Assembly: GCA_902496445.1 (NCBI GenBank)
Contig: CABVAZ010000002.1
Span: 4,925-68,924 of the forward strand
Length of the DNA stretch: 64,000 nt
Direction: 5' to 3'
Source of the DNA: an uncultured Prevotella sp.
GTDB taxonomy: Bacteria; Bacteroidota; Bacteroidia; Bacteroidales; Bacteroidaceae
The translations under genes were made by a program, and so were the position numbers. How positions within the stretch are numbered: the first letter of the stretch is position 1; the number at the start of each line of letters is the position of its first letter. The notes beneath the pieces are model-generated. The model had not been told where the DNA came from, did no database searches, and was given only the letters and a program-made list of their open reading frames with translations. Positions 2,744-35,692 of the stretch are shown one piece after another.

Positions 2744-3278
2744 TGTATGATGATAGAAAAAGTGTGTTGCAAAGTTACTAATTTCAACGCAAAACGCCAT
2801 CGTTTCATGCATAAAGTTACATGAAATGGCCTTTTGAACAATAAACAGCATCTGCTACAGAAGCTCATCACGTCATATATCCACAACAGGGCGCCCCTCC
2901 TAATGCTGCCCTTATGAACATCCGCACATTTGTTCTGCAGCCCAACACCAGCAACCACTGTCTATTGTGACTGTCTGTGCATCAGCCTCGAAGGTTGACT
3001 TATTATTAAGATAATCAGCAGTTGTAGTGGCCGTGCCTTGTGCCGGCCAACATCCTTGTACAACAGAGTTTTTATGAATTGCATTTGCAGGTTGTTGTGT
3101 GCACGCTCATTGTTGGCCATAGGCAGAGCGAACTTGGTCGGCACATTCTGTAAATTGGGGAAATATAAAGACTTCATTACACCGTGAAATCTCATAAATT
3201 AATGTTACTTTTGCATCGCATAATTATATTTTATCAATTTACCGATTGTTTATCAATATTTTTTATTATTATTTCATT

Positions 3279-6023
3279 ATGAACAAAATCTACATGTATC
3301 TCAGCCTTCTGCTTTTTTCGGCAGGAGCAACCCCCTTACATGCTGACACGGTGAGCCCCTATAAACAGGACTTCAACCGCAGTTTGTCTACAGACAATCA
3401 TCATTTTGCACCCTCCGGCTGGAGTCATATCGTCGACTCGCTCGAGTATGATGACGTGTCTTATTACGTGTCTTACAGCTATAGCTCATGGGCAGGTGTT
3501 GATGGCTCAGGATGTTTATCGGTAGGTAGCCAGGATGTATCCGACTATTGGGGCCATGCCACGAAGCATTGTCACGATGCATTAGTGACGCCGCCTGTGG
3601 CAGGCAAGTGTTCTGTCCGTGTGAAGAGCAGCAGATATTATTCTCCTGAGAGTAGCACGATTTCTTTCTTTAAGGTAAAGACAAACGCTGACGGCAGCTT
3701 TGCGCTCGGCGACTCTCTTGCAGTTGACGTGCCTCAGCTCACCAACGATGAGTATGCCACCATACAGTTGCCCGAAGCCGAGACCGGAACACGATATGCC
3801 ATCTGTGGCAGTCTGGTATACATAGACGACTTTACGGCCGAAAGCGCTGAGGTAGTGTTGAAGTCTGCCCTCACCATCACCGACATGACACTTTATTCTA
3901 CCAATGGCGGATGGACAGATGCAGATGCTGACGGTAACTATACCGTGACCTTCAACGTGAATTTGCGCAATACAGGCGACAAACAGCTTGACGACTCTTT
4001 GGAGGGCTACACACTGACTCTTATCAACATGGATAAGCACGTAGAGTTGGGCACATTCAGCATTGATAAGCCTTTAGCTATTGATGAGAATACCATCCAA
4101 CAAGTGAGTAAGACGTTGAACATAAGTGATTATCCTGATGTGACTACATATGGCGTAAGAGAAAATATCAGCGGTACCATCGGGCACACAGTCACCGTGA
4201 AGCCTTATGCCTATGTCAGCGAGTTTCATTTCACCGAGAGCACAGACACAAAGGCTCTGGGCGACACTATGCTATATGATTTCGGCACATCTCAGAACGA
4301 TGTCACCTTCAGCTTTGCCCTGCGCAACTATGGCGCGAAGCCATTATCCATCAGCAGCGTCAGTGTCCCTGAGGGGTTCACAACTGATTGGAAGGGCGCG
4401 CAGACCATCCCTGCCCATGGACGCATTGACGTAAAGGTAACCATGAGCCACGAGATGCAAGGCGCAAAATCGGGCTATGTCAGCGTGAAGGGTGACGGCG
4501 TTGACTTTCGTATGCCGGTGAAGGGTACTACCGTAAGCCAGGACCAGCTGTTCTATGACTTTGAGGATGGCAAGATGCCTTTGGCCACCGTATATAATGA
4601 CGGCATGTGGGGCATCAACGCTTTCCCACGTGTCATCGGGCTGAAAGGCAACAACTATTGCCTCGAAGGCAAGTCTGTCACCAAGCCGGAGAAATTCATC
4701 ACGCCTCTTGTAGAGGTGAAAAGCGGTGAGAGCCTCTCGTTCGACGCAGCGCAGATAGGGCAAGACTCATATCTGAACATCTATTACTCGGCCGACCGCA
4801 AGAACTGGACGCTCGTACATTCCATCATCGCCGACTCTACAATTACTGAAGGTGAGCATTTCTCACAGAAAGTTGTTTATGAGGCATGGGACGGTGAGAA
4901 ATATGAGATGACACATTTTGCGTATAACAATATCCCTGCCGGACAGTGGTATATAGCCTTCGAAGGTCATTGCTATATCGACAACATAACTGCCTACAAC
5001 CGTCTAGGCGTGGCGCATGACATAAGCTTCAGCGAGACCGTCATACCTGTCACAGGGATGGTGAACCACACATCAACTGCCAAGGCCAGCGTGAGGAACG
5101 TAAATGACCGCGATGAACAGAAGGACGGCTACAAGGTGATATTCTACCTCGACGACGTGGCTGTAGACACCATCAGCGAGAGCCCGCTTATCAAAGCAGG
5201 CGAGAGCAAAACTTTCACCGCTAAGTTCACCCCCGCACAAGCAGGAACCTATCATGCCTATGCCGTATTCGTGGCAGGCGACTATCGGCAGGTGTCTGAC
5301 ACAACGATGATGGACATAGCCGAGGACAACGGCTTTGTAGACGTGGCAGTGGGCACAGCTAGCAAACTGAACAACACCGTGCCGGTTTATACCTATGATG
5401 CCAACAGTGAGACAGAAACCGTTTATCCCGCCGCATTGCTCAAGGATGTACCTGCCGGAGCTGAGATAACGAAGCTCACATATCGTGGATTCAACTCAGA
5501 CAAGAAGAACAACTTCAAGCGCACGCTTACCGTGTGGATGGAGAATACAACAGACACGGTGTTCGGCGACGACCTTGCGCTGCGCCCTACCGCCAACATG
5601 ACCCAGGTATATCAAGGCGAATACACCTTTCCGAATGTTGGCACGCGCGACGATGCCCAAGACATGATTGTGCTGCCCCTTGCTACTCCCTTCAAGTATG
5701 ACGGCCAGAACCTCCGCATAACCATCCTGTCGGAGGGCGACGGCTACTGCTCAACTTATTATGAGGTAGACGACACCTACACCCAGTATGCCATTGGCCG
5801 TCACACCGATTACACCCTGGCCAACGCGTCGCTGAACAAGTACAGCCTTCCCGTTGTCCACCTGGAGGTCAATCCCACCGTGACAGCCATCACCGGCATT
5901 ACGCAGAAGGGCCATGCCCGTCACACCGGCGTCTACGACCTCACCGGACGCAAGGTGGCTGATAGCCTGCAAGGGCTGAAGAGCGGCATATATATAGTGA
6001 ACGGAAAGAAGGTGATTAAATAA
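3279..6023 (+). CDS. Large T9SS cargo surface protein (adhesin A). N-terminal domain with PSGWSHIVD, CARDB-like repeats and a T9SS C-terminal sorting domain.
   Basis: Signal peptide MNKIYMYLSLLLFSAGATPLHA. The N-terminus is paralogous to the protein at 44836 (PPGWSHIVD). Repeated modules of about 65 aa (YKVIFYLDDVAVDTISESPLIKAGESKTFTAKFTPAQAGTYHAYAVF). The C-terminus ...GVYDLTGRKVADSLQGLKSGIYIVNGKKVIK is typical of a Por/T9SS CTD. Confidence 0.8.
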   Translation: MNKIYMYLSLLLFSAGATPLHADTVSPYKQDFNRSLSTDNHHFAPSGWSHIVDSLEYDDVSYYVSYSYSSWAGVDGSGCLSVGSQDVSDYWGHATKHCHDALVTPPVAGKCSVRVKSSRYYSPESSTISFFKVKTNADGSFALGDSLAVDVPQLTNDEYATIQLPEAETGTRYAICGSLVYIDDFTAESAEVVLKSALTITDMTLYSTNGGWTDADADGNYTVTFNVNLRNTGDKQLDDSLEGYTLTLINMDKHVELGTFSIDKPLAIDENTIQQVSKTLNISDYPDVTTYGVRENISGTIGHTVTVKPYAYVSEFHFTESTDTKALGDTMLYDFGTSQNDVTFSFALRNYGAKPLSISSVSVPEGFTTDWKGAQTIPAHGRIDVKVTMSHEMQGAKSGYVSVKGDGVDFRMPVKGTTVSQDQLFYDFEDGKMPLATVYNDGMWGINAFPRVIGLKGNNYCLEGKSVTKPEKFITPLVEVKSGESLSFDAAQIGQDSYLNIYYSADRKNWTLVHSIIADSTITEGEHFSQKVVYEAWDGEKYEMTHFAYNNIPAGQWYIAFEGHCYIDNITAYNRLGVAHDISFSETVIPVTGMVNHTSTAKASVRNVNDRDEQKDGYKVIFYLDDVAVDTISESPLIKAGESKTFTAKFTPAQAGTYHAYAVFVAGDYRQVSDTTMMDIAEDNGFVDVAVGTASKLNNTVPVYTYDANSETETVYPAALLKDVPAGAEITKLTYRGFNSDKKNNFKRTLTVWMENTTDTVFGDDLALRPTANMTQVYQGEYTFPNVGTRDDAQDMIVLPLATPFKYDGQNLRITILSEGDGYCSTYYEVDDTYTQYAIGRHTDYTLANASLNKYSLPVVHLEVNPTVTAITGITQKGHARHTGVYDLTGRKVADSLQGLKSGIYIVNGKKVIK

Positions 6024-6066
6024 TCAGATATTCGGGTAACCGCTGATCATCCATCAGCATAGAAAT

Positions 6067-6103
6067 AGGAGACTATGCCCCCTTGCCACGGGCATAGCCT
6101 CCT
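6067..6103. terminator. Bidirectional hairpin between the convergent adhesin genes
   Basis: aggagactatgccc-ccttgccacg-gggcatagcctcct forms a 13-bp stem with one mismatch and is followed by tattattattat. It lies between the stop at 6023 (+) and the stop at 6217 (-). Confidence 0.4.
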
Positions 6104-6216
6104 ATTATTATTATGCGAATGAGCCATTTGAAAGATGAAGGATTGAAAGACTTTGGAGAACTCATGCTCTTTGTTATCTTCCACCTCCCGTCATTCATGT
6201 AGCGTTCAGCGTCTGC

Positions 6217-9200
6217 TTAGCGCACAACCTGCTTTCGCACCCTGCCGGTTTGCTTGTTGCGCAGCAGATAGATGCCCGAGGCATCGACATGCCTTGTGCC
6301 CAAGAGCTTGCCGTCTACGCCGTAGAAGGCTTGTGCTCCGGCACCCCCCGGCTGCTCTATGGCCACGTTATGCATGCCTGTGATGACAGCAGCATCGCTC
6401 AGCTCCGACTCGGCATCTTCATACAAAACGCTCACCTGATAGCTGTGAGCTCCACCGTCGGTATCAGTGAAGGCAGAGTCGGCCGATGTAACATCTGTCA
6501 GAGGCTCGCCGTCGCGATAGATGCGATAGCCCTGCACAATGGGCGTACCACTTTGATAAGTTATATCATCGATAAACATGCTCATGCAGTTGTGCGACAG
6601 ATAGCGTATGGCGAAATAGCGTGAGCCTTCAGGAAGTCGCACGGAAACGCGATACCATTCGGTAGAAACCATGGGATAATCGGCCAGCAGCCTGAATGCC
6701 GCAGTGTCTTTGCCGGCGCACGAGTATAGCACCTCGAAGTGCTCCGCCTCATATTCATCAGAAGGCATGCGCACATAGAACGACACGTCTTGCTGCTTTC
6801 CGCTTAATGAGGGTGAGATGAGCCAGTCGTCGTTGTGCCCCAGCTGTGTGGTAGACGGATCTACGCTGAATGCGGCAAGATACTGGTTGCCCGAATGTGG
6901 AACGTATACGCTTTGAGTGGTGTAGTTGATGCCAAGCTGCACAGGGTTGAACACCATAAACGCATACGGTGTGCCCGCCCTGGGCACGTTCAGGCTTCCC
7001 ATGTCATAAGCATTGCCCCTGTCGCCATCTACCAGTCGCCAGTCGCCTATGTTATATATACTCCATGCCGGAGCGCTCTCAAAGGTCTCTGTGGTACGTG
7101 CTATTTGTCTCTCGGGTGCCTTCCACCTCAGCAGGTTGCCACCGCTGGTGCCAGATGCTTCAAGGTCAGCAACCGTTGGCAGATGAGGTCTTGACACCCC
7201 GATGGTGGCAGATGAGGTGTTGTTGTCTGCATCGTCATCATATTCAGCCGTCACCTCAGCCTTAACCACTGCCGTTTGTCGGTCACGGATATCCGATTGA
7301 TAGTCCATGTCATACAGCATATATCCATAAGGTTCAGGCACAGAGTCGAGGCTCACAGTGCCCAGCACCTTGTCATGAGCGTCTCTCAGCGTGATGAGCC
7401 CCGTGCCTTGAGCTGATGCCGCGTTGTTGTAAACGTGCACCCTCACCACAGCCTTTTGCCCCGCCACTACGGTGTCTTGAGGCAGGCTGAGCAGCACAGA
7501 CAAATCGTTGGCCTGATGCTCCTGTATGCGTATGTTGTCTATAGCCACGAGTCCCTGCTCATTGCCCGTTACATTGCTTTCGGCGCGGAAGTGCAACATG
7601 ATGAAATCCTCGTCTCTCAGAGCAGACAAGTCGGCCACGGCAGTGTTCCATCCTGTGTGCGGAGCGTCGCCCCATGCAATATCCTTCAGAGTCACTTGCG
7701 TGAGATAGTCGCCCTTGGTAGCCGAAACGTGCAGCTTGACGTTCTGCCCCACACTCTTGTCAGGCACGTAGTAAGCAAACACCAGTTCAGGATTTACAGT
7801 GCCGGCAAGCGAAATCTTTGTAGAGCTGATGGTAGCGTCCTCGCCTTTGTTGGCAGCATACCAGAACACGAGTCCCGCAATATCGTCAGACGCATTGGTA
7901 GCGGCAAGCGTCAGTAAGTTCTGACCGTTGCCGGTGCGCCACCATCCATGCGATAGTGTGCCGTAGGGAAAAGTTTCGCGATAAGGAACAGTTGCAGCGT
8001 TGCCCGTCACTATATAATTGCTTTCTGTAGCTGCGCTGATGGTGTCGCTGTTGTATGCCACGACAACATACGAGTAGATGGTTCCGTCAGCAAAACTTGG
8101 TATAGTAGTGGTTAGCGTAGTGTCGCCCTGGTCGGTTCTTGCTATCACTTGGGGCATGCCTTTGCCATCAGGGCAGAACACGGCATAGTGTATGCTGCCC
8201 AAATCAACATATCCGCCATTCGCGCCCTTAGTAGTTATGCCGTCCCACTGCAGGGTGATGTTGTTGCCAGATGTTCGTCTGGCCGTTAGCTTTGCCGGAG
8301 CACAGGGCACATCTACGCCCACGAAGGCAGCAGCACTTGCCTTCTCGCCCCTCGTGCCGTTCAGTATAGCCATGGCACTGTAGGTGTTGCGTCCCCTTGG
8401 CGGTGTGTTGTCTTTATAAGATAAGGAAGCCCCTGTGGCCGGATTCTCAAATGTGTGTATCACGGTGTCGTTTCTGCAAACAATGACTTCTGACAAGCTG
8501 CCAAGGCTCTGCCCCTTAACATCCTTGTCTGGAGCCTTCAGGCTGATAGATGCGCCTGCTCCCCCCTTAGCGTCGGGTATTGCCGAAAAATCGGTGGGTG
8601 CTGTCGGCATGGTGAGCGGCCCGCTTTGCTTTACGCTCACATTGCCCAGGGCCAGAGAGTAGGGCAGAGCATCGCTTTCTGCATGCCAGGCAATACGATA
8701 ATCGCCCTGTTCGGGTTTTATGATTCTCACTTGGTATACAGTGTCAGACGTTGCCGTGACGTTCATCGTGGGCACAATCTCCTTGTAAGAGGCAGGATCG
8801 TCGCCCGTCCCCACGCTCACAGACAGCTTGGCCCTTCTGCCGACAAGGATTCTGGCAGCAAATGACAGCGTTGAGGCATGCTCGCCGTCAAAGTGTATGG
8901 GGGGCGTAATGAGCCAGTCGTCGGCTTTGTCATAACAGCTGATGCACATGCGATCGTAAGACGACACATATTGCCAGAAACTGTCATCATCGTCGGGGTT
9001 GACGATGGTAAACAGGTCGGCGTCAGCCTTGCTTCTGAATCCTTCCACATAAGGCATTTCGAAAGCCTTTCCAAAGGCCACTTTGTTGGAGCTGCCCGAT
9101 TCTCCCGCAACGCCATTGTTTACGGCGGTTATGGTATATCCGCTCAGCGCATAGTTCTGCTGTGGCACATCTTCAGTGAACACAGTATCAGCCACCGTAG

Positions 9201-9375
9201 CGACAGCGGCTTTCTCACCCGCCCGATACACCTTATAGCTAACAGCCGATGGCAGTAAATGGTGGCTATGCAAACCTTCGGTAACCCTGTTCCACTTTAC
9301 ATGAGCTACATTCTCAGCATCAACATAAAAGTCTACTTGCCCCCGGAGCAGCCGGAACGTCGGGGCCGGCCCACA
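6217..9375 (-). CDS. T9SS cargo adhesin B (cleaved-adhesin and Fn3-like modules, T9SS CTD). It has no start codon or signal peptide. The frame is open from the ORF-track TTG at 9273 up to a TAG stop at 9376-9378, and the gene is probably 5'-truncated or a pseudogene.
   Basis: Family motifs are DDWLITPP, DDWLISPS, FEVLYS, YFAIRYLSHN and GYRIYRDGEPL. The C-terminus ...GVDGKLLGTRHVDASGIYLLRNKQ is a T9SS CTD. The N-terminus begins in the middle of a module (SYKVYRAGEK...). By hand translation the in-frame upstream region reads CGPAPTFRLLRGQVDFYVDAENVAHVKWNRVTEG before the stop. Confidence 0.6.
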   Translation of the reverse strand, partial: CGPAPTFRLLRGQVDFYVDAENVAHVKWNRVTEGLHSHHLLPSAVSYKVYRAGEKAAVATVADTVFTEDVPQQNYALSGYTITAVNNGVAGESGSSNKVAFGKAFEMPYVEGFRSKADADLFTIVNPDDDDSFWQYVSSYDRMCISCYDKADDWLITPPIHFDGEHASTLSFAARILVGRRAKLSVSVGTGDDPASYKEIVPTMNVTATSDTVYQVRIIKPEQGDYRIAWHAESDALPYSLALGNVSVKQSGPLTMPTAPTDFSAIPDAKGGAGASISLKAPDKDVKGQSLGSLSEVIVCRNDTVIHTFENPATGASLSYKDNTPPRGRNTYSAMAILNGTRGEKASAAAFVGVDVPCAPAKLTARRTSGNNITLQWDGITTKGANGGYVDLGSIHYAVFCPDGKGMPQVIARTDQGDTTLTTTIPSFADGTIYSYVVVAYNSDTISAATESNYIVTGNAATVPYRETFPYGTLSHGWWRTGNGQNLLTLAATNASDDIAGLVFWYAANKGEDATISSTKISLAGTVNPELVFAYYVPDKSVGQNVKLHVSATKGDYLTQVTLKDIAWGDAPHTGWNTAVADLSALRDEDFIMLHFRAESNVTGNEQGLVAIDNIRIQEHQANDLSVLLSLPQDTVVAGQKAVVRVHVYNNAASAQGTGLITLRDAHDKVLGTVSLDSVPEPYGYMLYDMDYQSDIRDRQTAVVKAEVTAEYDDDADNNTSSATIGVSRPHLPTVADLEASGTSGGNLLRWKAPERQIARTTETFESAPAWSIYNIGDWRLVDGDRGNAYDMGSLNVPRAGTPYAFMVFNPVQLGINYTTQSVYVPHSGNQYLAAFSVDPSTTQLGHNDDWLISPSLSGKQQDVSFYVRMPSDEYEAEHFEVLYSCAGKDTAAFRLLADYPMVSTEWYRVSVRLPEGSRYFAIRYLSHNCMSMFIDDITYQSGTPIVQGYRIYRDGEPLTDVTSADSAFTDTDGGAHSYQVSVLYEDAESELSDAAVITGMHNVAIEQPGGAGAQAFYGVDGKLLGTRHVDASGIYLLRNKQTGRVRKQVVR

Positions 9376-9680
9376 CTATGCGATGGGCTGCCTCTGACGT
9401 TCCCGAGCTGTTGCTGCATAAGAAAGACATCCTCACATTCCCCGTAGGCAATTGTCCTGTAAAGGATATGCTCTCACCCGGTTGCCCCGTTCCAGTCTGA
9501 AGTGTGTCGGGGCCGGCGCACACCACATAATTCATACTGCCGCTTGCGTCATCCCCCCCCACCGTCTTAGACGGCAAAGTAAACTGCACATCGCAAGTGT
9601 TGGTGGGCTCAATGGGAGTAAGATGTATGTCGGTTATCTTGGCCGGAGCCTGTGTGTTCAGCTCCCCGCAAATGCTCCGA
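9320..9680 (-). pseudogene. Out-of-frame upstream continuation of adhesin B. It is one Fn3-like module separated from the main frame by a frameshift and a stop near 9340-9378.
   Basis: The minus-strand frame of ORF 9320..9589 is open to 9808. It reads ...QAPAKITDIHLTPIEPTNTCDVQFTLPSKTVGGDDASGSMNYVVCAGPDTLQTGTGQPGESISF.... This aligns to an internal module of adhesin B (CAPAKLTARRTSGNNITLQWDGITTKGANGGYVDLGSIHYAVFCPDGKG). Confidence 0.5.
9553..9560. repeat. Homopolymeric C8 tract (G8 on the coding minus strand) inside the upstream adhesin B module
   Basis: The sequence atcccccccc accg can be read directly. It encodes the Gly-Gly of ...KTVGGDD... in the minus-strand frame. A second C5 tract at 9340-9344 coincides with the frame change. 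Confidence 0.9.
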
Positions 9681-12676
9681 TGGGCATCTACTGGTATAAG
9701 GTATATGCAGTAAACGGCGATATGACAAGCGAGGAAGTGAACACACAGTATCAGAAGGTGGCTTTCGGAGGAGCACTGCCAACACCGTGGTATTGCAATT
9801 TCGAGTCGTCAGACTCGTTGATGCTCTTCACAAAAATCAACAGTAACGATGATTATAGCTCGTGGTATTGGACCAGCGACTACGACTATAACACAGGTCT
9901 GAACAATGGCAGAGCTGCCATATCCACAAACAGTGCTGCCGACGACTGGCTCCTCACACCCCCGCTGAAGCTTTTGGGCGGACGCGAATACTGCGTCAGC
10001 TACTCTTACGAAAGCGGTACCTGGGACAAGGACAACATCATGCAGGTTCTCTTCGGAAAAGGCACTGACGCGACGGGCTTCAAGGCTATCAGCGACACTC
10101 TAAAATTCTCGGGAGTGGGCATGCCCTGGAACCACAGCAAAAACACCGTCCGGATAGAGTCTGACGGCGAATATAGGTTTGCCTTTCACGCTATGAGCCC
10201 TGACCAAGCCCAATACATCAAGATCGACAGCCTGGGCGTATACCCCGGTGCCGTATTCCTCTCACCCGACTCCGTAACCCAATTGCAGATGAAGCCCCGT
10301 CTCGGCGAGTATAACACACAACTGACGTTCAAAGCGCCCACAAAGCTTGGCGACGGATCACTCCTCCCATCAATAGAAAAGATAGAAATACTGGCGCAAG
10401 ACACCATCCTGCTCAAGACTCTCAGCAATGTAACCCCTGGCGAGCAACTGACTTACACCGACACATCAGCCTACAGCGGATTACGCAAGTACACCGTAGT
10501 GGCTTATAATGAGGCCGGACGTGGCTCAGAAAACAGCGTGAGCGGATATGTGGGTGACGATGTGCCTGCTACAACAGAAGGTGTAACCTATCAAGACAAC
10601 CTCAACGGAACAGCCACCATCTCATGGAACAAGGTCAGTACCACAGGCGCTAACGGAAGACCCGTCAACCCCGCACATGTCACTTACGGCATCATGCCCA
10701 TGGGCTACGGCAACCATCAGGGCGGTGCAGCACCTACTATTACGGGCATTAAAGATACCTGCTATGTAATAGACGACATACCCACTACGGGCGAACAACG
10801 CTTGGCCGACTTCCTGGTTTACACCACAAACCTTGCCGGAACAGGCAATCCGGGATTCGACTTCAACACTCTTATCACTGGCGCTCCTTACACGCTGCCG
10901 CTGCACGAGGGATTCAATCAGGGCCAAAGCGTATATAAGTGGGAGTATTATCGATATGACAATGTGAGCAATTTCTCGGCTGATGACGACGAACCCGGAG
11001 CTGTCGCCATGACAGGCATGGGGGCAGACAACATGAAGGGCACACTCACCTCCTACAAGATAAACCTGGCAGGCGCTGCCAATCCCAAACTCGTATTCAG
11101 CATCTACGGACAGAAACCCACGAACAACAATCCCTCTTACATCAATGTCATCGAACGAATGGATGGTAGAGCCAATCCACCTTATATTCTTCAGAAGATA
11201 GACCTCTCTGCAGCCTTCTCTCCAGAAGGTGAGTGGAAGCGAATAGCCATACCTCTCGTAAAGCATGACAATGGATACGTGCGCTTGCAATTCTATACCA
11301 TGCTCGGCGACAAAACCGTACCAGTTGCCATCGACAACATAGATGTATACGATGTGCCGTCACATGACCTGCAGATAAAACTGAAAGGCTCTGCCTCTGT
11401 TAAGGTAAACAACAACGGCACCTATCACGTCAGGGTGACCAACAGAGGCGAAAACACCGAAAGTAACTTTACCATACGTTTGGTCGACTCGAAAGACAGC
11501 CTGCTTGCCTCATGTAATGGTGGTACGCTCGCATCCATGGCAGACAGCACCTACACCCTGCTGTTTCATGCCACCACCAACACCGTGGGACAATACATGC
11601 TACAGGCGGTTGTGACAGATGCCAATGACACCATTGCCCGTAACAATCGCGACACCATGATGGTGGCTGTCAGCCCGAGCGACTATCCCGGTATAACAGA
11701 CTTGCGCGCCTCCACTAACGGCTCCCGTTACGTCACACTGTCGTGGAGCGAGCCACAAGGCGCTTATCCCAACATCACAGAAGACTTTGAGGCCTACGAG
11801 CCATTCAGCGACAGTATGTCACCCTGGCAGCTCATTGATGCCGATGGAGCTCAGAAAACCTACGGATTTGCAGATGTCACCTTCAGCCACATGGGACAGG
11901 CCATGAGCTACATCACCTTCAAACCCTCAGCTTTGGGAGTAGACCCTCAGGCCAATCCCAATGCTGCTGCGCCGTCGGGAGAGCAATACGTCATCTCATT
12001 CGATGCCGTACCGCAATATGCCAAGAACGGCCACTCCGACGACTGGCTCATCTCACCCCAACTGTCAGGAAGAGAGCAGACCATCAAGCTGAAAGCCGGA
12101 CTGCTGACAAGCAATTATGGCGCAGAGACCTTCGACGTGCTCTATTCAACAACCGACTCGGCACAAAGCAGCTTCCAGCTCCTTGAGACAGAGCGGCCAT
12201 CCGCTGCTGGGTGGACTGAATATGAGGTTACATTGCCTGAAGATGCCCGCTTCTTCGCCTTGCGCCACACCACACCCAACGGCTTGTCACTCGCCTTTGA
12301 CGACGTCTCTTTCGAAGGCGCTTCACAACCCGTCACGGGCTACAGAATCTATCGTGACGGAGAACTTATCGCCTCGCTCCCCGCAGCTGTGACCAACTTC
12401 GACGACTATGCCTCAGAAGACGGCCTGCACACCTATATGGCAACAGCCATGTATGGCGACAAAGAGTCTGCAGCATCCAATGCCATAACCATTGCTACAG
12501 AAATAGGATATTTATCTGCAATCACAGACAATCTGATGGATGTTGATGTCACGGTATACAATACAGCCGGTGTAAGGATGGCTTCTGGTAAGGGTGTTTT
12601 AGCTAAGATGCCTAGAGGTATTTACCTTGTTAGTCCCAATGGAACATCTAAGTGCTACCGTATGATAGTGAGATAG
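9623..12676 (+). CDS. T9SS cargo adhesin C, paralogous and collinear with adhesin B. It has no signal peptide and is probably 5'-truncated.
   Basis: Family motifs are DDWLLTPP, DDWLISPQLSG, FDVLYSTT, FFALRHTT and GYRIYRDGELI. The C-terminus ...GVLAKMPRGIYLVSPNGTSKCYRMIVR is T9SS-CTD-like. Homology to adhesin B begins at YWYKVYAVNGD (about 9689). The first in-frame ATGs, at 9623 and 9680, give non-secretory N-termini. The frame is open back to a TTG at 9452 but runs antisense to the adhesin B module. Confidence 0.6.
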   Translation: MYVGYLGRSLCVQLPANAPMGIYWYKVYAVNGDMTSEEVNTQYQKVAFGGALPTPWYCNFESSDSLMLFTKINSNDDYSSWYWTSDYDYNTGLNNGRAAISTNSAADDWLLTPPLKLLGGREYCVSYSYESGTWDKDNIMQVLFGKGTDATGFKAISDTLKFSGVGMPWNHSKNTVRIESDGEYRFAFHAMSPDQAQYIKIDSLGVYPGAVFLSPDSVTQLQMKPRLGEYNTQLTFKAPTKLGDGSLLPSIEKIEILAQDTILLKTLSNVTPGEQLTYTDTSAYSGLRKYTVVAYNEAGRGSENSVSGYVGDDVPATTEGVTYQDNLNGTATISWNKVSTTGANGRPVNPAHVTYGIMPMGYGNHQGGAAPTITGIKDTCYVIDDIPTTGEQRLADFLVYTTNLAGTGNPGFDFNTLITGAPYTLPLHEGFNQGQSVYKWEYYRYDNVSNFSADDDEPGAVAMTGMGADNMKGTLTSYKINLAGAANPKLVFSIYGQKPTNNNPSYINVIERMDGRANPPYILQKIDLSAAFSPEGEWKRIAIPLVKHDNGYVRLQFYTMLGDKTVPVAIDNIDVYDVPSHDLQIKLKGSASVKVNNNGTYHVRVTNRGENTESNFTIRLVDSKDSLLASCNGGTLASMADSTYTLLFHATTNTVGQYMLQAVVTDANDTIARNNRDTMMVAVSPSDYPGITDLRASTNGSRYVTLSWSEPQGAYPNITEDFEAYEPFSDSMSPWQLIDADGAQKTYGFADVTFSHMGQAMSYITFKPSALGVDPQANPNAAAPSGEQYVISFDAVPQYAKNGHSDDWLISPQLSGREQTIKLKAGLLTSNYGAETFDVLYSTTDSAQSSFQLLETERPSAAGWTEYEVTLPEDARFFALRHTTPNGLSLAFDDVSFEGASQPVTGYRIYRDGELIASLPAAVTNFDDYASEDGLHTYMATAMYGDKESAASNAITIATEIGYLSAITDNLMDVDVTVYNTAGVRMASGKGVLAKMPRGIYLVSPNGTSKCYRMIVR

Positions 12677-12794
12677 TCATCGGTTGATTGTTCTATTCAG
12701 CATGCCCGCTTTCTTTTGCAGAGAAGTGGACATGTTCTTGTTAGATATAGAGCAGTGCTTGTGAAGGCGTGTGCTAAGCTACGCTCGAACGCAC

Positions 12795-12838
12795 AAAAAA
12801 AAGAGAGGGCTGGAGTCCTCACTTGGATTTCAGCCCTC
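12795..12838 (-). terminator. Rho-independent terminator read on the minus strand, downstream of the sigma/anti-sigma pair
   Basis: The minus strand reads gagggctgaaatccaagtgaggactccagccctc followed by tcttttttttg, an 8-bp GC-rich stem followed by a T8 run. Confidence 0.5.
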
Positions 12839-12940
12839 GATCTACGTTTGTATGTTATGAAAAATTTGAGAGAATTGAAACTTCACAGTTTCATTTTTGT
12901 TTTACTAAACATGATTTATTGAGAAAGCATAGAAATTATC

Positions 12941-13411
12941 TTATTTCATGAATCCGTCGGGGGTGATGCTCTGCTTCATGGTGTCGAGCTTGGCGGAGTC
13001 TATCTTGGCCACAGAGGGTCCGTCGTGCGGCTTCTCCATGCTGGCCGAGGAGGGTGCGGGTGCGGCGTTCTCGTCGCTCACAGCCATTTGCATGGCGTTC
13101 CCGATGGTAAGTATGATGGCTACGACAGCCGCTGCCTTGAAGAGCGGCATGAGGCGCCTGCGCATGGTGATAACTCGGGCTTTGACTGGCCGTGCGTCTT
13201 CCGTGAGTGCCAGAATCCTCTCGTCGAAGTCATCGCCCAGGGCATTTTCTTGCTTTTGGGCGTGAGCATAGCTGAACAGGGGCTGGAAAGGGCGCAACTC
13301 TTCGGGGATGTTGTCCTGTGAGAAGAAGGTCTTCAGGATGTCCTCTTCCTCAAGGGTTGTCTCGCACTTCCAGTAGCGCTCGAGTATTTGCTGTATATAC
13401 TTATAATCCAT
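12941..13411 (-). CDS. Putative anti-sigma factor, a small single-pass membrane protein
   Basis: 156 aa with one TM segment (LMPLFKAAAVVAIILTIGNAM). It overlaps the upstream ECF sigma gene by 11 nt. Confidence 0.5.
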   Translation of the reverse strand: MDYKYIQQILERYWKCETTLEEEDILKTFFSQDNIPEELRPFQPLFSYAHAQKQENALGDDFDERILALTEDARPVKARVITMRRRLMPLFKAAAVVAIILTIGNAMQMAVSDENAAPAPSSASMEKPHDGPSVAKIDSAKLDTMKQSITPDGFMK

Positions 13412-13913
13412 AGTTGTCTATTTTTCTAAACTTTTGCTTGATGGTTTGGCGGGCTCTGAAGATATTCACCTTCACTTGTTCCTCGGTTATGCCGAGTATC
13501 TCCGCTACTTCCTTATAGCTTTTTCCCTCAAAGTCGCGGAGCTGCATGCAGCTCCGTTGTTTTTCGGGGAGTGTGTTCACAAGCTTTCTGACGGTTTCTA
13601 CTCTGTCTTTTCGCATCATCAGCTTGTAGGGATCGCTCGTCGCAGACGGCTCGGGTGTGTTCTTGGATTCCAGTGACTCGTGGTCGTTGCCTTTTTTCTT
13701 CAGGCGGTCCAGAGCCATGTTGCGACATATGGTGAGGCAGAAGGCCTCTATGGAGTCTATCTCTGGCCAATAGTCGCGCTTGCTCCACACTTTGATGAGC
13801 GTGTCCTGAACGATGTCTTCAGCTTCGGTCTGATTGAGTGTGATGCGCAGGGCAAGCCTGTATAGCTGGTTCTTCAGCGGCAACACATCGTTACGAAAAC
13901 TGATTTTCTTCAT
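13401..13913 (-). CDS. RNA polymerase sigma-70 factor, ECF subfamily
   Basis: Region 2 reads DIVQDTLIKVWSKRDYW. Region 4 reads LPEKQRSCMQLRDFEGKSYKEVAEILGITEEQVKVNIFRARQTIKQKF. Confidence 0.85.
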   Translation of the reverse strand: MKKISFRNDVLPLKNQLYRLALRITLNQTEAEDIVQDTLIKVWSKRDYWPEIDSIEAFCLTICRNMALDRLKKKGNDHESLESKNTPEPSATSDPYKLMMRKDRVETVRKLVNTLPEKQRSCMQLRDFEGKSYKEVAEILGITEEQVKVNIFRARQTIKQKFRKIDNYGL

Positions 13914-14018
13914 CTGACTTCTGCTTAAAAGACGATTGGGTTATGGTGAAAGTTACAGCAATACGGGTGAAAGTTATTGTTTTTAATATCTGTTAACAAT
14001 ACTTGGTTCCCTGCCCTG

Positions 14019-14780
14019 TTATTGTATAATGGTGCCTTCTTGGCCGTCTATGGCGGTGGCTTGTGTGATGAAGACCCGCCTGACGCCTCTCTCTACGGCC
14101 AAGAGGGCGTTTTCTACCTTGGGTATCATCCCGCCCGAGAGCGTGCCGGAGGCTTTCAGGGCCTCGAAGCGGGCGCGGTTGAGATGGGGTATGACGCTGC
14201 CGTCGTCGCCCATCACGCCTTTCTTCTCGAAGCAATAGATGAGCGTGGTGTCGTAGAGTCCAGCCATGGCGCAGGCTGTCTCTCCGGCAATGGTGTCGGC
14301 GTTGGTGTTGAGCAGCCGCCCCTCGGCGTCGAAGGTGAGGGGTGCCAGGACGGGTGTGAGCCCTTGCTCCAGGAATGCCTGCAGTTGTGGGCCGTTTACC
14401 TCTTTGACGTCGCCTACGTAGCCATAGTCTGTGCCGTTTGTTATGGGGCGCTTCTCGGAGCGTATCACGGTGGCGTCGGCTCCTGTGAGGCCGAGTGCCC
14501 GGATGCCTTTGGCGTCGAGACGCGCCACGATGTTCTTGTTGACCAGACCTGCGTAGACCATTGTCACCACGTCGAGCATCTGCCTGCCGGTGACTCGCCT
14601 GCCCTCTACCATGCGGCTTTCAATGCCCAAGGCGGCGGCTACCTTGGTGGCTCTGCGGCCTCCGCCGTGCACAAGTATCTTATGCCCGGGCAGGGTGGCA
14701 AAGCGTCCGAGCAGGTTGTCTAGCCGGCTGTCGTCTTCGACGATGGCCCCGCCCACTTTGATGATGGTGAGTTTTTCCAT
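14019..14780 (-). CDS. argB: Acetylglutamate kinase
   Basis: IIKVGGA...LVHGGG...TNADT motifs are present. 253 aa of the amino-acid kinase family. Confidence 0.9.
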   Translation of the reverse strand: MEKLTIIKVGGAIVEDDSRLDNLLGRFATLPGHKILVHGGGRRATKVAAALGIESRMVEGRRVTGRQMLDVVTMVYAGLVNKNIVARLDAKGIRALGLTGADATVIRSEKRPITNGTDYGYVGDVKEVNGPQLQAFLEQGLTPVLAPLTFDAEGRLLNTNADTIAGETACAMAGLYDTTLIYCFEKKGVMGDDGSVIPHLNRARFEALKASGTLSGGMIPKVENALLAVERGVRRVFITQATAIDGQEGTIIQ

Positions 14781-14786
14781 TTCTGT

Positions 14787-16688
14787 TTATTCCAGATAAG
14801 TGTATCCATAGAGCCCGGAGCGGTAGTTGCTGAGAAATTCCTTGCCCTCGTCGAGGGTTATCTTGCCGCTCTTGACGCTCTTTGTCACCCATATCTCGAG
14901 CTGGCGCACGAGCTTTTTGGGGTTATACTGCACATAGTCGAGCACCTCTTCTACGGTTTCGCCGTCGAATATCTGGTCGATGTGATACTGTCCGTTCTTC
15001 ACTGATATGTGCACGGCATTGGTGTCGCCGAAGAGGTTGTGCATGTCGCCGAGTATTTCCTGGTAGGCTCCTACGAGGAACACGCCCAGGTAGTAAGGCT
15101 CGCCCTTCTTGAGAGTGTGCACGGGCAGCACATGCTCTATATGTCCGTTGCACACGAAGTTGGCTATCTTGCCGTCGCTGTCGCACGTTATGTCTTGCAG
15201 CGTGGCGTTGCGTGTGGGGCGCTCGGCAAGCCGCTGTATGGGCATGATGGGGAAGAGCTGGTCTATGGCCCAGCTGTCGGGCAGTGACTGGAAGATGGAG
15301 AAGTTGCAGAAATACTTGTCGGCCAGCAACTTGTCAAGCCCGCGCAGCTCATCGGGCACGTGCTTCATGCCTTGCGCCAGGGTGTTTATCTCGTGGCACA
15401 CGCTCCAGTACATGCTCTCTATCTCGGCCCTTGTCTTGAGGTCTACCATGCCGTGTGAGAAGAGCTCCAGGGCCTCGTCGCGTATCTGCTCGGCATCGTG
15501 CCAGTCTTCGAGCATTGTTCTGGGGTTGAGGTTGTCCCATATATCATACAGGTCTTTCACCAGCTGGTGGTCAGACTCCTTGGCCTCAAACTCTTCGGGC
15601 ATCTCGGGCAGGGATGCTGTCTCGAGCACGTCTATGATCAGCACGGAGTGGTGGGCTGCGAGGCTGCGGCCGCTCTCTGTGATGATGTTGGGGTGGGCGA
15701 TGTTGTTTTTGTTGGCGGCGTCTACAAAGGTGTAGACGCAGTCGTTCACATACTCTTGTATGGAGTAGTTCACGCTGCTCTCGCTGCTGGAGCTGCGTGT
15801 GCCGTCATAGTCTACGCCGAGCCCGCCTCCGCAGTCAACGAAGTCTACGTTATATCCCATCTTGTGCAGGTTAACGTAGAACTGGGCTGCCTCTTTCAAG
15901 GCTGTCTGTATGCGTCGTATCTTGGTTATCTGGCTTCCGATGTGGAAGTGTATGAGTCTGAGGCAGTCGTCGAGCCCTCTTTCGTGAAGTATGTGCAGCG
16001 CGTCGAGCAGCTCGGAGCTGGTGAGCCCGAACTTGCTGGCATCGCCTCCGCTCTCTTCCCACTTGCCCGAGCCGGATGAGGCGAGCTTGATTCTGATGCC
16101 CAGGTTGGGCTTGATGTTCATTTTCTTGGCCACGCGTGCGATGATGTCGAGCTCGTTGAGCTTCTCCACCACGATGAAGATGCGCTTTCCCATCTTCTGT
16201 GCCAGCAGTGCCAGCTCTATGTAGCTTTGGTCTTTATACCCATTGCAGACAATGAGCGAGTCGCTCTGGCACTGCACGGCGATGACGGCGTGCAGCTCGG
16301 GCTTTGATCCGGCCTCAAGTCCGAGGTTGAACTTGCGTCCGTGTGAGATGATTTCTTCCACGACGGGCTGCATTTGGTTTACCTTGATGGGGTAGATAAT
16401 GAAATTTTGGGCCTTGTAGTCGTATTCCTTGGCGGCTTTCTGAAAGCAGCTGGCTGTTTTCTCGATGCGGTTGTCCAGAATGTCGGGAAAACGCAGCAGC
16501 ACGGGGGGTGTGACGTCTCTGAGCGCCAGCTCGTCCATCACGTCGCGCAGGTCTATCTGCGTATTGTCCTTGCACGGGGTGACATACACGTCTCCTTTAT
16601 CGTTGATGCCAAAGTAGGATGTGCCCCATCCGTTGATGTTGTACAGCTCTTTGGAGTCTTCTATTGTCCATTTTTTCATTGTTGTCAA
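14787..16688 (-). CDS. speA: Biosynthetic arginine decarboxylase
   Basis: 633 aa PLP-dependent decarboxylase of fold III with a characteristic SpeA N-terminus (MKKWTIEDSKELYNINGWG...YPIKVNQ). Confidence 0.9.
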   Translation of the reverse strand: MTTMKKWTIEDSKELYNINGWGTSYFGINDKGDVYVTPCKDNTQIDLRDVMDELALRDVTPPVLLRFPDILDNRIEKTASCFQKAAKEYDYKAQNFIIYPIKVNQMQPVVEEIISHGRKFNLGLEAGSKPELHAVIAVQCQSDSLIVCNGYKDQSYIELALLAQKMGKRIFIVVEKLNELDIIARVAKKMNIKPNLGIRIKLASSGSGKWEESGGDASKFGLTSSELLDALHILHERGLDDCLRLIHFHIGSQITKIRRIQTALKEAAQFYVNLHKMGYNVDFVDCGGGLGVDYDGTRSSSSESSVNYSIQEYVNDCVYTFVDAANKNNIAHPNIITESGRSLAAHHSVLIIDVLETASLPEMPEEFEAKESDHQLVKDLYDIWDNLNPRTMLEDWHDAEQIRDEALELFSHGMVDLKTRAEIESMYWSVCHEINTLAQGMKHVPDELRGLDKLLADKYFCNFSIFQSLPDSWAIDQLFPIMPIQRLAERPTRNATLQDITCDSDGKIANFVCNGHIEHVLPVHTLKKGEPYYLGVFLVGAYQEILGDMHNLFGDTNAVHISVKNGQYHIDQIFDGETVEEVLDYVQYNPKKLVRQLEIWVTKSVKSGKITLDEGKEFLSNYRSGLYGYTYLE

Positions 16689-24032: not shown

Positions 24033-24063
24033 TTTGACAGCTAGCTATTTTTTTGTAACTTTG
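24033..24063 (+). promoter_or_regulatory. Bacteroides sigma-A promoter (-33 TTTG, -7 TAACTTTG) for the nucleoside transporter gene
   Basis: gaTTTGacag lies 19 nt upstream of gTAACTTTGc, and the ATG is at 24078. Confidence 0.4.
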
Positions 24064-24077
24064 CAGCTGTTTATATT

Positions 24078-25310
24078 ATGGTACTCAATTATATTTGGAT
24101 AGCATTCTTCGTCATAGCCTTTGTCTTTGCGATTATTCAACTGGCTATGGGCAATACGACAATCTTTCAACAGATTGTCCTTTCTACTTTCGACTCTTCC
24201 AAAACGGCCTTCGAAACGTCGTTGGGACTTACAGGCGTGCTGGCCTTGTGGCTGGGCATCATGAAGATAGGAGAGAGGGCTGGCGTGGTGAATGTGCTGG
24301 CCAGGATGCTCAGCCCGGTGTTTACGAAGCTCTTCCCTGACATTCCCAAGAATCATCCTGTGATGGGCAGCATCTTCATGAACATCGCTTCCAACATGTT
24401 GGGGCTTGATAATGCCGCCACGCCTACGGGACTCAAGGCTATGAGCCAGATGCAAGAGCTGAACAACAAGAAGGACACGGCCACCAATCCCATGATTATG
24501 TTCCTTGTGCTCAACACGTCCGGCCTCACCATCATCCCCACAACCATCCTTGCCTTTCGCTCCTCTTACGGAGCGGCACAGCCCAACGACGTGTTCATAC
24601 CCATCCTGCTGGCCACCACGGTGGCCACACTGGCCGGCATTGTCGTCACTGCCTTGTGGCAGAAGATAAATCTCTTGCAGCCTGCTCTGCTGGCTACGCT
24701 GCTCGGTCTCATCGCTTTTGTGGGGCTGGTGATATGGGGCTTCGGGCAGATGAGCCGTCAGACGATGGACACGGTGACGGCTGTAGCCTCCAACCTGATA
24801 CTCTTCGGCTTCATCGTGCTGTTCATTCTGGCGGGTTGGCTGAAGCACATCAACGTCTATGACGCCTTCATAGAGGGCGCGAAAGAGGGCTTCAGCACCG
24901 CTGTGCGCATCATTCCCTATCTTGTGGCCATACTTGTTGGCGTGGGCGTGTTCCGCGCTTCGGGTGCCATGGACATGCTCATAGGAGGCGTGAAGTGGGC
25001 TGTGGCAGCCTGCGGCATGAATACCGACTTTGTGGGCGCGCTGCCCACGGCACTTATGAAGCCGTTGTCGGGCAGTGGGGCGCGTGGCCTGATGCTCGAA
25101 ACCATGAAGCATTACGGCCCCGACTCGTTTGTGGGCAGGCTGAGCTGCATTTTCCAAGGCTCCACCGACACCACGTTCTACATCCTGGCCGTTTACTTCG
25201 GCTCGGTAAACATCAAATACACACGCCACGCCGTGGCCTGTGGCTTGCTGGCAGACTTGGCTGGCGTGATAGCGGCTATATGCATAGCCTACATCTTTTT
25301 CGGCGCATAG
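24078..25310 (+). CDS. Membrane protein with a nucleoside-recognition domain (SpmA/SpmB-like)
   Basis: 410 aa polytopic protein. The Gate/nucleoside-transporter-like repeats (NMLGLDNAATPTGLKAM) are duplicated. Confidence 0.7.
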   Translation: MVLNYIWIAFFVIAFVFAIIQLAMGNTTIFQQIVLSTFDSSKTAFETSLGLTGVLALWLGIMKIGERAGVVNVLARMLSPVFTKLFPDIPKNHPVMGSIFMNIASNMLGLDNAATPTGLKAMSQMQELNNKKDTATNPMIMFLVLNTSGLTIIPTTILAFRSSYGAAQPNDVFIPILLATTVATLAGIVVTALWQKINLLQPALLATLLGLIAFVGLVIWGFGQMSRQTMDTVTAVASNLILFGFIVLFILAGWLKHINVYDAFIEGAKEGFSTAVRIIPYLVAILVGVGVFRASGAMDMLIGGVKWAVAACGMNTDFVGALPTALMKPLSGSGARGLMLETMKHYGPDSFVGRLSCIFQGSTDTTFYILAVYFGSVNIKYTRHAVACGLLADLAGVIAAICIAYIFFGA

Positions 25311-25357
25311 CAAACATCATATAGGCTCTGTGAGAGCGTAAATCCAATAACTTTGAA

Positions 25358-35400: not shown

Positions 35401-35692
35401 ATCGTTTTTTGCTGACAAAAATAAGAAATAAAGGCGATACATGAAAGCATTTGGATGACAAATCGACCCACTTCACTTTGTTATCGTTATTATTGGGTAG
35501 GATAACGAATGTTAAATTGGCTGTATGGGGACGCTTGCTTACGGAGTATAAGCTGCTTTTTTATGCTGTCAGACCGAATGACTGATAAGTGACTGTAAGG
35601 AGTATTTAGGTTTGTTTTTTACACTTTTAACGGGAAAAGAAGATGAATTAAGCGAATATTGTGTAACTTTGGAAACTGAAAAGCAGATTTAT

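Follow-up and report, generated by a model that had tools for sequence, protein, structure and literature searches.

A deletion allele of a divergent choice-of-anchor J gene pair in a human-gut Prevotella

Choice-of-anchor J/Fn3 putative adhesins have been described among the T9SS (type IX secretion system) cargo of Prevotella intermedia, in which a short C-terminal domain (CTD) is defined by motifs B (Y..G), D (GxY followed by I or L) and E (a terminal K or R) (PMC11969387). The locus analyzed here lies in a 64,000-nucleotide stretch of DNA from an uncultured Prevotella sp., hereafter the window, and its two genes, A and B, resemble this cargo in their intact form: each carries two NF038128 regions, Fn3/Ig-like modules and a Sec signal peptide, and, compared by eye, their tails, with Y..G, GxY[IL] and a terminal K/R, are like the short CTDs (PMC11969387). 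They differ from it in that both miss the standard T9SS CTD HMM, their secretion being putative and predicted from sequence, and in that nothing upstream of codon 332 (B) or codon 485 (A) is left in the window copies. The invertible promoters and shufflons of Bacteroidales are similar only in the theme of surface-protein variation and in a superficial head-to-head geometry, whereas this locus has no pre-existing inverted-repeat sites, recombinase or second orientation, and DNA has been lost from it. Silent-cassette gene conversion needs long tracts of high identity, but the paralogues in the window are ~28–30% identical at the protein level. From the microhomology-mediated (illegitimate) deletions seen as structural variants of gut commensals the locus shows no essential difference, as it shares with them an intact conspecific allele, collinear flanks, a 3-nt microhomology and secondary frameshifts; only its geometry is unusual. 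The deletion covers a divergent promoter region, and two paralogues are therefore decapitated together in an arrangement that mimics an inversion junction.

The window region 6217–12676 is occupied by a minus-strand ORF (6217–9273) and a plus-strand ORF ending at 12676, which are collinear paralogues with 28% identity over 1,023 columns (BLASTP, E = 2e-97). The start of the plus-strand gene aligns with residue 46 of the minus-strand ORF, a position in the final strand of an Fn3-like module. The initial annotation had correctly recognized two head-to-head adhesin paralogues, but placed their junction at 9680–9690 instead of its true position at 9659–9661. The modules it called cleaved-adhesin domains are better named as two choice-of-anchor J domains: NF038128 (choice-of-anchor J) reaches 113 and 98 bits, where the cut-off is 30, with two stretches in each of A and B, whereas the Pfam Cleaved_Adhesin matches barely exceed the threshold. 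The T9SS CTD it assigned was not recognized by the HMMs: neither TIGR04183 nor PF18962 nor any other Pfam model matched A, B or the neighboring 925-aa protein, even at E ≤ 10, in searches that covered the full proteins and their last 100 aa. The tails of A and B (VYNTAGVRM...GIYLV...KCYRMIVR; FYGVDGKLL...GIYLL...RKQVVR), compared by eye only, do show the pattern described for the Prevotella short-CTD class. A and B are best described as surface proteins of ~1,480 aa and putative T9SS adhesins. Among the window genes examined, none was identified as part of the T9SS machinery. Sequence searches of the PDB with intact A and B returned no match, and the lost N-terminal domain resembles a beta-propeller only through sub-threshold matches to DUF4394 and Tachylectin.

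The intact locus was found on nine contigs of the same species, 98.2–98.9% identical to the window; conspecific contigs were located through an identical ECF sigma protein encoded next door. In it, an AT-rich spacer of 321 bp lies between the divergent genes A (1,489 aa) and B (1,478 aa), both of which encode a signal peptide. The intergenic region has 27% GC and contains one TAnnTTTG motif facing each gene, a motif that is absent from window 9200–9900. Intact A starts with MKHNLLLSMIAVFFVPLYSSG and then Q, and intact B with MEKTLGFLCLLLLPGWLGSSG and then Q, both of them signal-peptide-like; Sec signal peptides are seen by inspection in the intact alleles, and neither window copy has one. The intact loci L002, L007, L009 and L010 encode proteins of 1,454–1,489 aa and 1,478 aa, and the window-like loci L003, L004, L005 and L008 have ORFs of ~1,000 aa. 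In blastn comparisons, the deletion-type loci align end to end with the window, while window 6169–9661 and 9659–16000 match, with order and orientation unchanged, two blocks of the intact locus that have ~2.77 kb between them. The neighboring genes are the same in intact and window-type loci, with the order and orientation of the flanks kept. The breakpoints map to A codon 485 and B codon 332, in agreement with the earlier reading that both genes are 5′-truncated at one DNA point. The intact and the deleted allele both occur among the sampled assemblies of the species. When genome contigs were searched, the B remnant had no relative and the ECF sigma factor matched only other Prevotellaceae at ≤75% identity; a search of metagenome contigs with an invariant junction-adjacent 37-mer returned one contig, L091, which carries the intact allele.

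A base-by-base comparison with four intact alleles pins the junction to window 9659–9661, a single CAG common to both sides and the one left of two, which reads as L332 of B on the minus strand (CTG) and as Q485 of A. In the intact alleles, 2,769 bp lie between the two CAG copies; on the reverse complement of L002 this segment occupies 3493–6261. A-derived sequence extends from 9662 onward (...LPANAPMGIYWYKVY) and the B-derived coding in the window begins LNTQAPAKIT; the peptide HRSICGE, previously quoted as B coding, is A antisense. The lengths agree with this, as the intact 9,228 nt compare with 6,459 nt in the deletion allele (the window span of 6,460 nt less an extra C). The junction 20-mer TGTGTGTTCAGCTCCCCGCA, at window 9651, is also present in L003, L004/L092, L005, L008, L103 and L104, and the 20-mers of the intact edges (TGTGTGTTCAGAGGATTTGT, ACACAGACCAGCTCCCCGCA) were not found in the window. 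At least seven contigs thus have the same junction; they stem from six different samples and belong to ENA SPAdes, MEGAHIT or Logan assemblies. The breakpoint microhomology is 3 nt (CAG) in all four intact comparisons, and no longer direct or inverted repeat is common to both breakpoints of the intact allele, apart from a 6-nt inverted match (CTGTGT/ACACAG), which was treated as chance.

The remnant of A (9662–12676, plus strand) retains, from the intact 1,489-aa gene, codons 486–1489 with the stop codon and is 98.4–98.9% identical to the 3′ part of intact A (blastn). Besides the promoter, signal peptide and N-terminal domain, it has lost one Ig-like module and the greater part of an Fn3 module, and keeps a CARDB and two choice-of-anchor J domains in a frame that is still open, with 1,004 uninterrupted codons in all deletion lineages. 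The remnant falls in the 90%-identity cluster P0001, with intact members of 1,454–1,489 aa and truncated members of 1,017 aa. Because the plus-strand ORF extends at its 5′ side through the antisense of the B remnant (9452–9661, plus strand; TTG at 9452, ATG at 9623), gene callers give chimeric "proteins" of 1,074 aa or 1,017 aa. P0107, the recorded 1,017-aa product, is found on five contigs, and another truncated product, P0113, on six. No signal peptide follows the TTG at 9452 or the ATG at 9623, and the annotated 1,017/1,074-aa and 1,018-aa products of gene callers are best regarded as pseudogenes.

The remnant of B (6217–9661, minus strand) retains, from the intact 1,478-aa gene, codons 332–1478 with the stop codon and is 98.2–98.5% identical to the 3.4 kb at the 3′ side of intact B from L002, L007, L009 and L010 (blastn). 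The promoter, the signal peptide and an N-terminal domain of ~330 aa are missing, and the remaining part contains two choice-of-anchor J domains together with MAM-like, fn3 and RGI_lyase-like domains. A C5 homopolymer at 9340–9344, which reads as G5 in the coding direction of B, breaks its frame by +1, and only the window lineage has this shift. The run is C5 in the window and in the clonal L005, L103 and L104, and C4 in all other alleles, intact or deleted; since the C5 contigs come from other samples and assemblers, it is not the sequencing error of one assembly. A second, independent frameshift, +CC at 6343, is present in L003 and L008, so that two of the three deletion lineages have a frameshifted B remnant, and none was found in the intact alleles examined. 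The TTG at 9273 from which the ORF finder starts the minus-strand ORF is internal and is not followed by a signal peptide. The initial annotation was therefore right that a genuine start codon and signal peptide are missing in both genes, the ORF-finder starts being antisense or internal; the minus-strand gene does reach the junction, as it had stated, but only across the frameshift at 9340–9344.

We consider it highly probable (roughly 93%) that window 6217–12676 is a deletion allele of the divergent A/B choice-of-anchor J locus of a human-gut Prevotella and that its two remnants are pseudogenes. Direct observation covers the intact allele, the position of each breakpoint to the base, the microhomology there, the finding of one and the same junction in independent assemblies, and the secondary frameshifts, and the event is an ordinary deletion of a known kind, not an inversion switch. 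Simple decay, the option listed last in the initial annotation, was essentially correct, in the form of a 2,769-bp deletion allele. One deletion of this size took away B codons 1–331, the 321-bp intergenic region with both promoters, and A codons 1–484. Its ends at two CAG triplets, with 3 nt of microhomology, point to illegitimate recombination or replication slippage as the probable mechanism. It left two 3′ portions that face outward and lack a promoter, a start codon and a signal peptide, and the B remnant acquired its +1 frameshift in a later step in the window lineage. All deletion alleles would derive from one event, with their flanks reshuffled afterwards by homologous recombination. 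Since the promoter and the signal peptide are missing in both genes, export would be impossible, and we infer that the remnants are neither expressed nor exported.

The relationships among the deletion alleles bear on whether the event happened once. Barring private singletons and site 9671, which varies among intact alleles too, all the deletion alleles have a single core haplotype in common between 9527 and 9709, and this haplotype resembles that of the intact allele L099. They also sit on mosaic haplotypes, and any two of them are separated by 83–98 substitutions over 6.4 kb, as many as separate a deletion allele from an intact one; a single origin thus requires frequent recombination, or metagenome consensus sequences in which strains are mixed. 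Excision of the 2,769-bp segment by a dedicated mechanism, as an irreversible off-switch for both adhesins, would, if repeated, explain the presence of the deletion on several divergent haplotypes, and the selected appearance of the remnant polymorphism and the other independent disruptions at the locus (L001, L006 and L093–L098) would suit it as well. Such programmed excision is nevertheless very improbable: the microhomology is just 3 nt, the ends have no repeat or recombinase site, no recombinase is nearby, and the sharing of one junction-proximal core haplotype by all deletion alleles is what a single event followed by flank recombination predicts.

An equally minor place is left for functional remnants, either as silent donor cassettes for gene conversion into expressed paralogues or as products expressed from internal starts. 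The open A frame of all deletion lineages would be in keeping with function, as would the absence of stop codons made by substitution in the remnants and the values of pN/pS: A has 0.08 both between deletion alleles and between intact alleles, and B has 0.16 and 0.10, respectively. The ratio of nonsynonymous to synonymous variants is 21:40 for those found only in deletion alleles versus 56:177 for intact-allele variants (p = 0.10), and neither this test of relaxed selection nor the pairwise pN/pS gives a significant signal of decay. However, the junction has no promoter motif, start codon or signal peptide, and B is frameshifted in most deletion lineages. The longest DNA similarity is ≤30 nt between A and B; between A or B and the other paralogues in the window it is 30–56 nt, a length insufficient for gene conversion. 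Regular replacement of the flanks from intact alleles would likewise be expected to give a low pN/pS. The purifying-looking pattern of the remnants is compatible with a deletion of recent date, or with remnants that recombination constantly overwrites from intact alleles, and residual function would also fit it; on the evidence of the junction and of the B frameshifts we regard functional remnants as highly unlikely.

The initial annotation had favored an inversion with both breakpoints inside adhesin paralogues, the 3′ halves meeting here and the 5′ halves facing each other at a reciprocal junction elsewhere, or else a shufflon or silent-cassette system. Two 5′-truncated paralogues facing outward from one point do suggest such an event, and a 20-nt, 85% inverted repeat straddles the junction, pairing 9650–9669 with 9729–9748. 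This repeat was rejected as a recombinase site because its left arm, half B and half A, was made by the junction and was therefore absent before the event; no comparable inverted repeat exists at the intact edges. A and B are already divergent neighbors in the intact alleles. An inversion inside the pair would retain all DNA and make hybrid genes rather than leave a head-to-head scar, whereas the window corresponds to the intact locus minus 2,769 bp between unchanged flanks. Among more than 20 conspecific contigs there is no inverted isomer, all of them being intact, deleted or insertion-bearing. Convergent adhesin 5′ fragments were looked for within the 64-kb window, the part of the genome searched, and none was present; the deleted 2,769 bp, including the 5′ halves of A and B, had no blastn match there. 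The large ORFs scanned and the called genes of the window encode no integrase or invertase domain, only the housekeeping RuvB and a topoisomerase; the initial annotation had likewise noted no recombinase gene. An inversion junction or shufflon is, on these grounds, extremely improbable. An assembly artefact, in which a metagenome assembler collapsed or skipped 2.8 kb, is the least credible alternative, for although the window is 100% identical to the metagenome scaffold L005 from sample SAMEA2466959 and metagenome consensus can be chimeric (all four site combinations occur at 9494/9503), the identical junction recurs across assemblers and samples with lineage-specific secondary mutations, and an assembler could not have been misled by a repeat common to A and B, none of which exceeds 30 nt.

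The deletion allele of the A/B locus adds one more case of presence/absence variation of a large surface adhesin among gut Prevotella strains. It also carries a caution: seen in a single genome, the deletion of a divergent promoter looks like the junction of an inversion or shufflon, and a comparison with conspecific alleles settles the choice between deletion and inversion at once. Other disruptions affect the same locus. L001 and L006 have two different deletions of ~8.8 kb, whose endpoints, at 2931–2946 and at 11703–11714, differ by no more than 15 nt on either side; in L093–L098, a mobile element has probably inserted 70 nt upstream of A. Next to the remnants, at 3246–6023 on the plus strand, the variable cluster also includes an intact gene whose 925-aa surface product has a signal peptide and ends in a short-CTD-like tail; L001 and L006 have lost this gene in their larger deletions, along with B and most of A. 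With at least four independent disruptive events, the A/B locus might be a hot spot of recurrent, possibly selected loss, a reading that we find rather unlikely and hold only tentatively. In that case, IgA or phage pressure on surface proteins could keep the deletion allele at appreciable frequency on many haplotypes, and recombination with intact strains could keep the remnants looking selected. Should the losses prove selected, they would be of modest interest for strain-level interaction with the host.

More than 100 Prevotella members of the family, named by NCBI "choice-of-anchor J domain-containing protein", measure 1,450–1,520 aa, which indicates that the long form is ancestral. The window itself contains a full-length paralogue of 1,550 aa (40119–44771, plus strand), with a choice-of-anchor J score of 114 bits and 30% identity to A residues 1–467 (tblastn, E = 5e-46). 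Its signal peptide and N-terminal domain are intact (N-terminus MKTFLLSNIVGAIAFLSVATAGAQ), and it displays what both remnants are missing.

The minus-strand ORF at 6217–9273 (1,018 aa) and the plus-strand ORF at 9452–12676 (1,074 aa), both present in the ORF listing and the six-frame translation, are 3' remnants of two genes, here called B and A, respectively. Their proteins are collinear paralogues with 28% identity over 1,023 columns (BLASTP, E = 2e-97). Each contains two choice-of-anchor J domains (NF038128, 98–113 bits against a cut-off of 30); the domain search also returned CARDB, MAM-like, fn3 and RGI_lyase-like beta-sandwiches, and only marginal Cleaved_Adhesin matches. In six-frame translation, the homology of the B remnant runs on upstream of 9273 in another frame to about 9660, and the first ~70 codons of the plus-strand ORF are the antisense of the minus-strand coding sequence. 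The A remnant begins at the counterpart of residue 46 in the minus-strand ORF, within the final strand of an Fn3-like module. Both remnants lack a homologous N-terminus and a signal peptide, and the starts chosen by the ORF finder (TTG 9452 and ATG 9623 on the plus strand, TTG 9273 on the minus strand) are fortuitous. These data bear out the initial annotation of two paralogous genes lying head-to-head without a true start or signal peptide.

An exact look-up of a 170-aa ECF sigma protein, whose gene lies 0.7 kb downstream of the plus-strand gene, gave conspecific contigs with 10-kb flanks. Matches of this sigma factor in the genome collection searched, from named Prevotella, Segatella and Hoylesella species, reach no more than 75% identity, and NCBI labels the proteins of the conspecific MAGs 'Prevotella sp.'. 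The scaffold labels ZELL14, GAIO21 and STEW19 are study-style and, judged by name only, point to human-gut metagenome studies. In four loci (L002, L007, L009 and L010), both genes are full-length and divergent: A (1,454–1,489 aa as called) and B (1,478 aa), separated by about 321 bp. Four others (L003, L004, L005 and L008) resemble the window in having two ORFs of about 1,000 aa each, and L001 and L006 retain only a 325–330-aa tail of A. More than 100 Prevotella family members measure 1,450–1,520 aa, the conspecific ones being named 'choice-of-anchor J domain-containing protein [Prevotella sp.]' at NCBI; the long form is ancestral.

Blastn resolves window 6169–9661 and 9659–16000 into two blocks with 98.2–98.9% identity to the intact loci, where they have the same order and orientation with ~2.77 kb between them. 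The window-like loci match end to end, L005 with 100% identity. Base-level comparison places the junction at a single CAG at 9659–9661, rather than at about 9680–9690 as first proposed. On the B side, the window matches intact ...CCTGTGTGTTCAG/AGGATTTG... upstream of the CAG; on the A side, it matches intact ...ACACAGACCAG/CTCCCCGCA... downstream of it. The left CAG is codon L332 of B, read on the minus strand, and the right CAG is codon Q485 of A. The loss amounts to 993 + 321 + 1,452 + 3 = 2,769 bp, which is also what remains when the corresponding span in the window (6,459 nt, leaving out an extra C) is subtracted from the intact one (9,228 nt). With a probability of about 0.93, the locus is an ordinary deletion polymorphism in which two divergent paralogous surface-protein genes were decapitated together, an event that mimics an inversion junction.

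The intact proteins begin with MKHNLLLSMIAVFFVPLYSSG/QG... (A) and MEKTLGFLCLLLLPGWLGSSG/QE... (B), which have the appearance of typical Sec signal peptides. In both, Gln directly follows the likely cleavage site, as is common in signal peptidase I substrates of Bacteroidetes. Each is followed by a domain of ~300 aa with sub-threshold similarity to DUF4394 and Tachylectin, probably a beta-propeller. In the 321-bp intergenic region (27% GC), each gene is faced by one Bacteroidetes-type -7 motif (TAnnTTTG), which for B lies 53 nt and for A 106 nt upstream of the ATG; the motif is absent from both strands of window 9200–9900. Both genes thus lost their promoter, start codon, signal peptide and head domain in the deletion, and A also an Ig-like module and the larger part of an Fn3 module.

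The window (at 9651), L003, L004/L092, L005, L008, L103 and L104 all contain the junction 20-mer TGTGTGTTCAGCTCCCCGCA; the 20-mers of the intact edges are absent from the window and present in 8 and 15 other loci. Five contigs encode the truncated product of the window haplotype and six that of the L004 haplotype. An additional C (C5 vs C4) at 9340–9344, which frameshifts the B remnant, is common to the window, L005, L103 and L104; an additional CC at 6343 is common to L003 and L008. L004 has neither, nor do the intact alleles examined, and the B remnant is thus frameshifted in two of the three deletion lineages. The minus-strand frame of this remnant stays open for ~50 codons past the junction (9662–9810), through the antisense of A, with a hydrophobic stretch (...HLLILCVHFLACHIAVYCIYLIPV...). 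Gene callers therefore give a 1,070-aa ORF in the allele without a frameshift (L004), whose resemblance to a membrane anchor at the N-terminus is almost certainly fortuitous.

Deletion haplotypes differ from one another by 83–98 substitutions in 6.4 kb, about their distance from intact alleles, and at only two sites were the first four intact alleles distinct from every deletion allele. Near the junction (9527–9709), all deletion alleles share one core haplotype that resembles the intact allele of L099, except for private singletons at 9554, 9614 and 9648 and site 9671, a position that is variable in intact alleles too. The pattern is mosaic farther from the junction and across loci throughout 6217–12676, and all four site combinations occur at SNPs 9494 and 9503, 9 nt apart. 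The mosaics reflect either very frequent homologous recombination in the species or strain-mixed metagenome consensus contigs, and they limit dating of the deletion. The pattern fits a single deletion event with flanks later swapped by homologous recombination, at some risk from strain-mixed consensus.

The remnants show no clear sign of decay in their substitutions. The pN/pS ratio is 0.08 (A) and 0.16 (B) between deletion alleles, and 0.08 and 0.10 between intact alleles. Deletion-only variants include no stop codons and have an N:S ratio of 21:40, vs 56:177 (odds ratio 1.66, p = 0.10) for variants that occur in intact alleles. This suggests either that the deletion is recent compared with the standing variation or that intact donors continually overwrite the remnants. 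Residual function of the remnants is unlikely, because promoter, start codon and signal peptide are missing and the B frame is broken in two of three lineages.

An inversion with breakpoints inside adhesin paralogues, a shufflon or a cassette store, as first envisaged from the head-to-head arrangement, is very unlikely to have made the junction: in intact alleles, A and B already lie side by side in divergent orientation. An inversion within the pair would keep all DNA and give A5'-B3' and B5'-A3' hybrids without a scar. No inverted isomer is found among more than 20 conspecific contigs, and a blastn search of the window with the deleted DNA gives no match. By tblastn, the lost N-termini match only internal Ig modules and a distant full-length paralogue with an intact N-terminus (40119–44771, plus strand, 1,550 aa, choice-of-anchor J family). 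An inverted repeat is present at 9650–9669/9729–9748 (20 nt, 85%); its left arm was built by the junction itself, so it could not have guided the event. The lack of a recombinase gene noted in the initial annotation holds for the large ORFs at 24–63 kb (Pfam scans) and the neighbouring genes (precomputed domains), where no integrase or invertase was found. DNA similarity reaches at most 30 nt between A and B and 30–56 nt with other paralogues, stretches too short to support homologous inversion or gene conversion. An assembly artefact is ruled out by the same junction in six samples and several pipelines (SPAdes-type, MEGAHIT-type and Logan) and by the lineage-specific secondary mutations.

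Neither TIGR04183 nor the Pfam CTD models match the C-terminal tails of A, B or the adjacent 925-aa protein, even with the threshold relaxed to E ≤ 10. [quoted passage not shown] By eye, the three tails (...VYNTAGVRM...RGIYLV...KCYRMIVR; ...FYGVDGKLL...SGIYLL...RKQVVR; ...VYDLTGRKV...SGIYIV...KKVIK) fit this description, which makes 'putative T9SS adhesin' a reasonable label. In tandem with the full-length paralogue lies a second large surface-protein gene (44836–49314, plus strand, 1,492 aa) with CarboxypepD_reg repeats and a weak Por_Secre_tail match (16 bits, below cut-off).

The locus is hit repeatedly in the species, by the 2,769-bp deletion, two larger deletions and a probable insertion upstream of A. 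In L001, window 2946 is joined to ~11714, and in L006, 2931 to ~11703; these deletions of ~8.8 kb take out the 925-aa gene, the whole of B and two-thirds of A. The two junctions differ, neither being derivable from the other by further deletion, and their ends lie within 15 nt of each other at both sides, which may point to a hot spot for deletion or to a quasi-repeat (CTGC.GCC..CAAC) at both sites. Six contigs from different samples (L093–L098), with the intact A allele P0115, leave the normal intergenic sequence at one common point (...GATTGCTTGCGGATTTTAGG/GATTTAGTAAAG...), ~70 nt upstream of the A ATG, and end within 142 nt past it, the affected part being the first 28–142 nt of each contig. 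The departure probably marks a multi-copy mobile element between the A promoter motif and start codon. The repeated hits could reflect selection against these surface proteins.

Elsewhere in the window, a type II restriction-modification pair at 35612–38194 (plus strand) consists of a XamI-family endonuclease (316 bits) and, after it, an Eco57I/N6_Mtase-type methylase. At 24045–25313 (minus) and 24078–25310 (plus), two ORFs, each longer than 400 aa, overlap almost fully. Only the plus-strand ORF has a Pfam match (Gate, nucleoside recognition), and its antisense counterpart is probably a shadow ORF; long antisense ORFs also accompany many other genes of the window.
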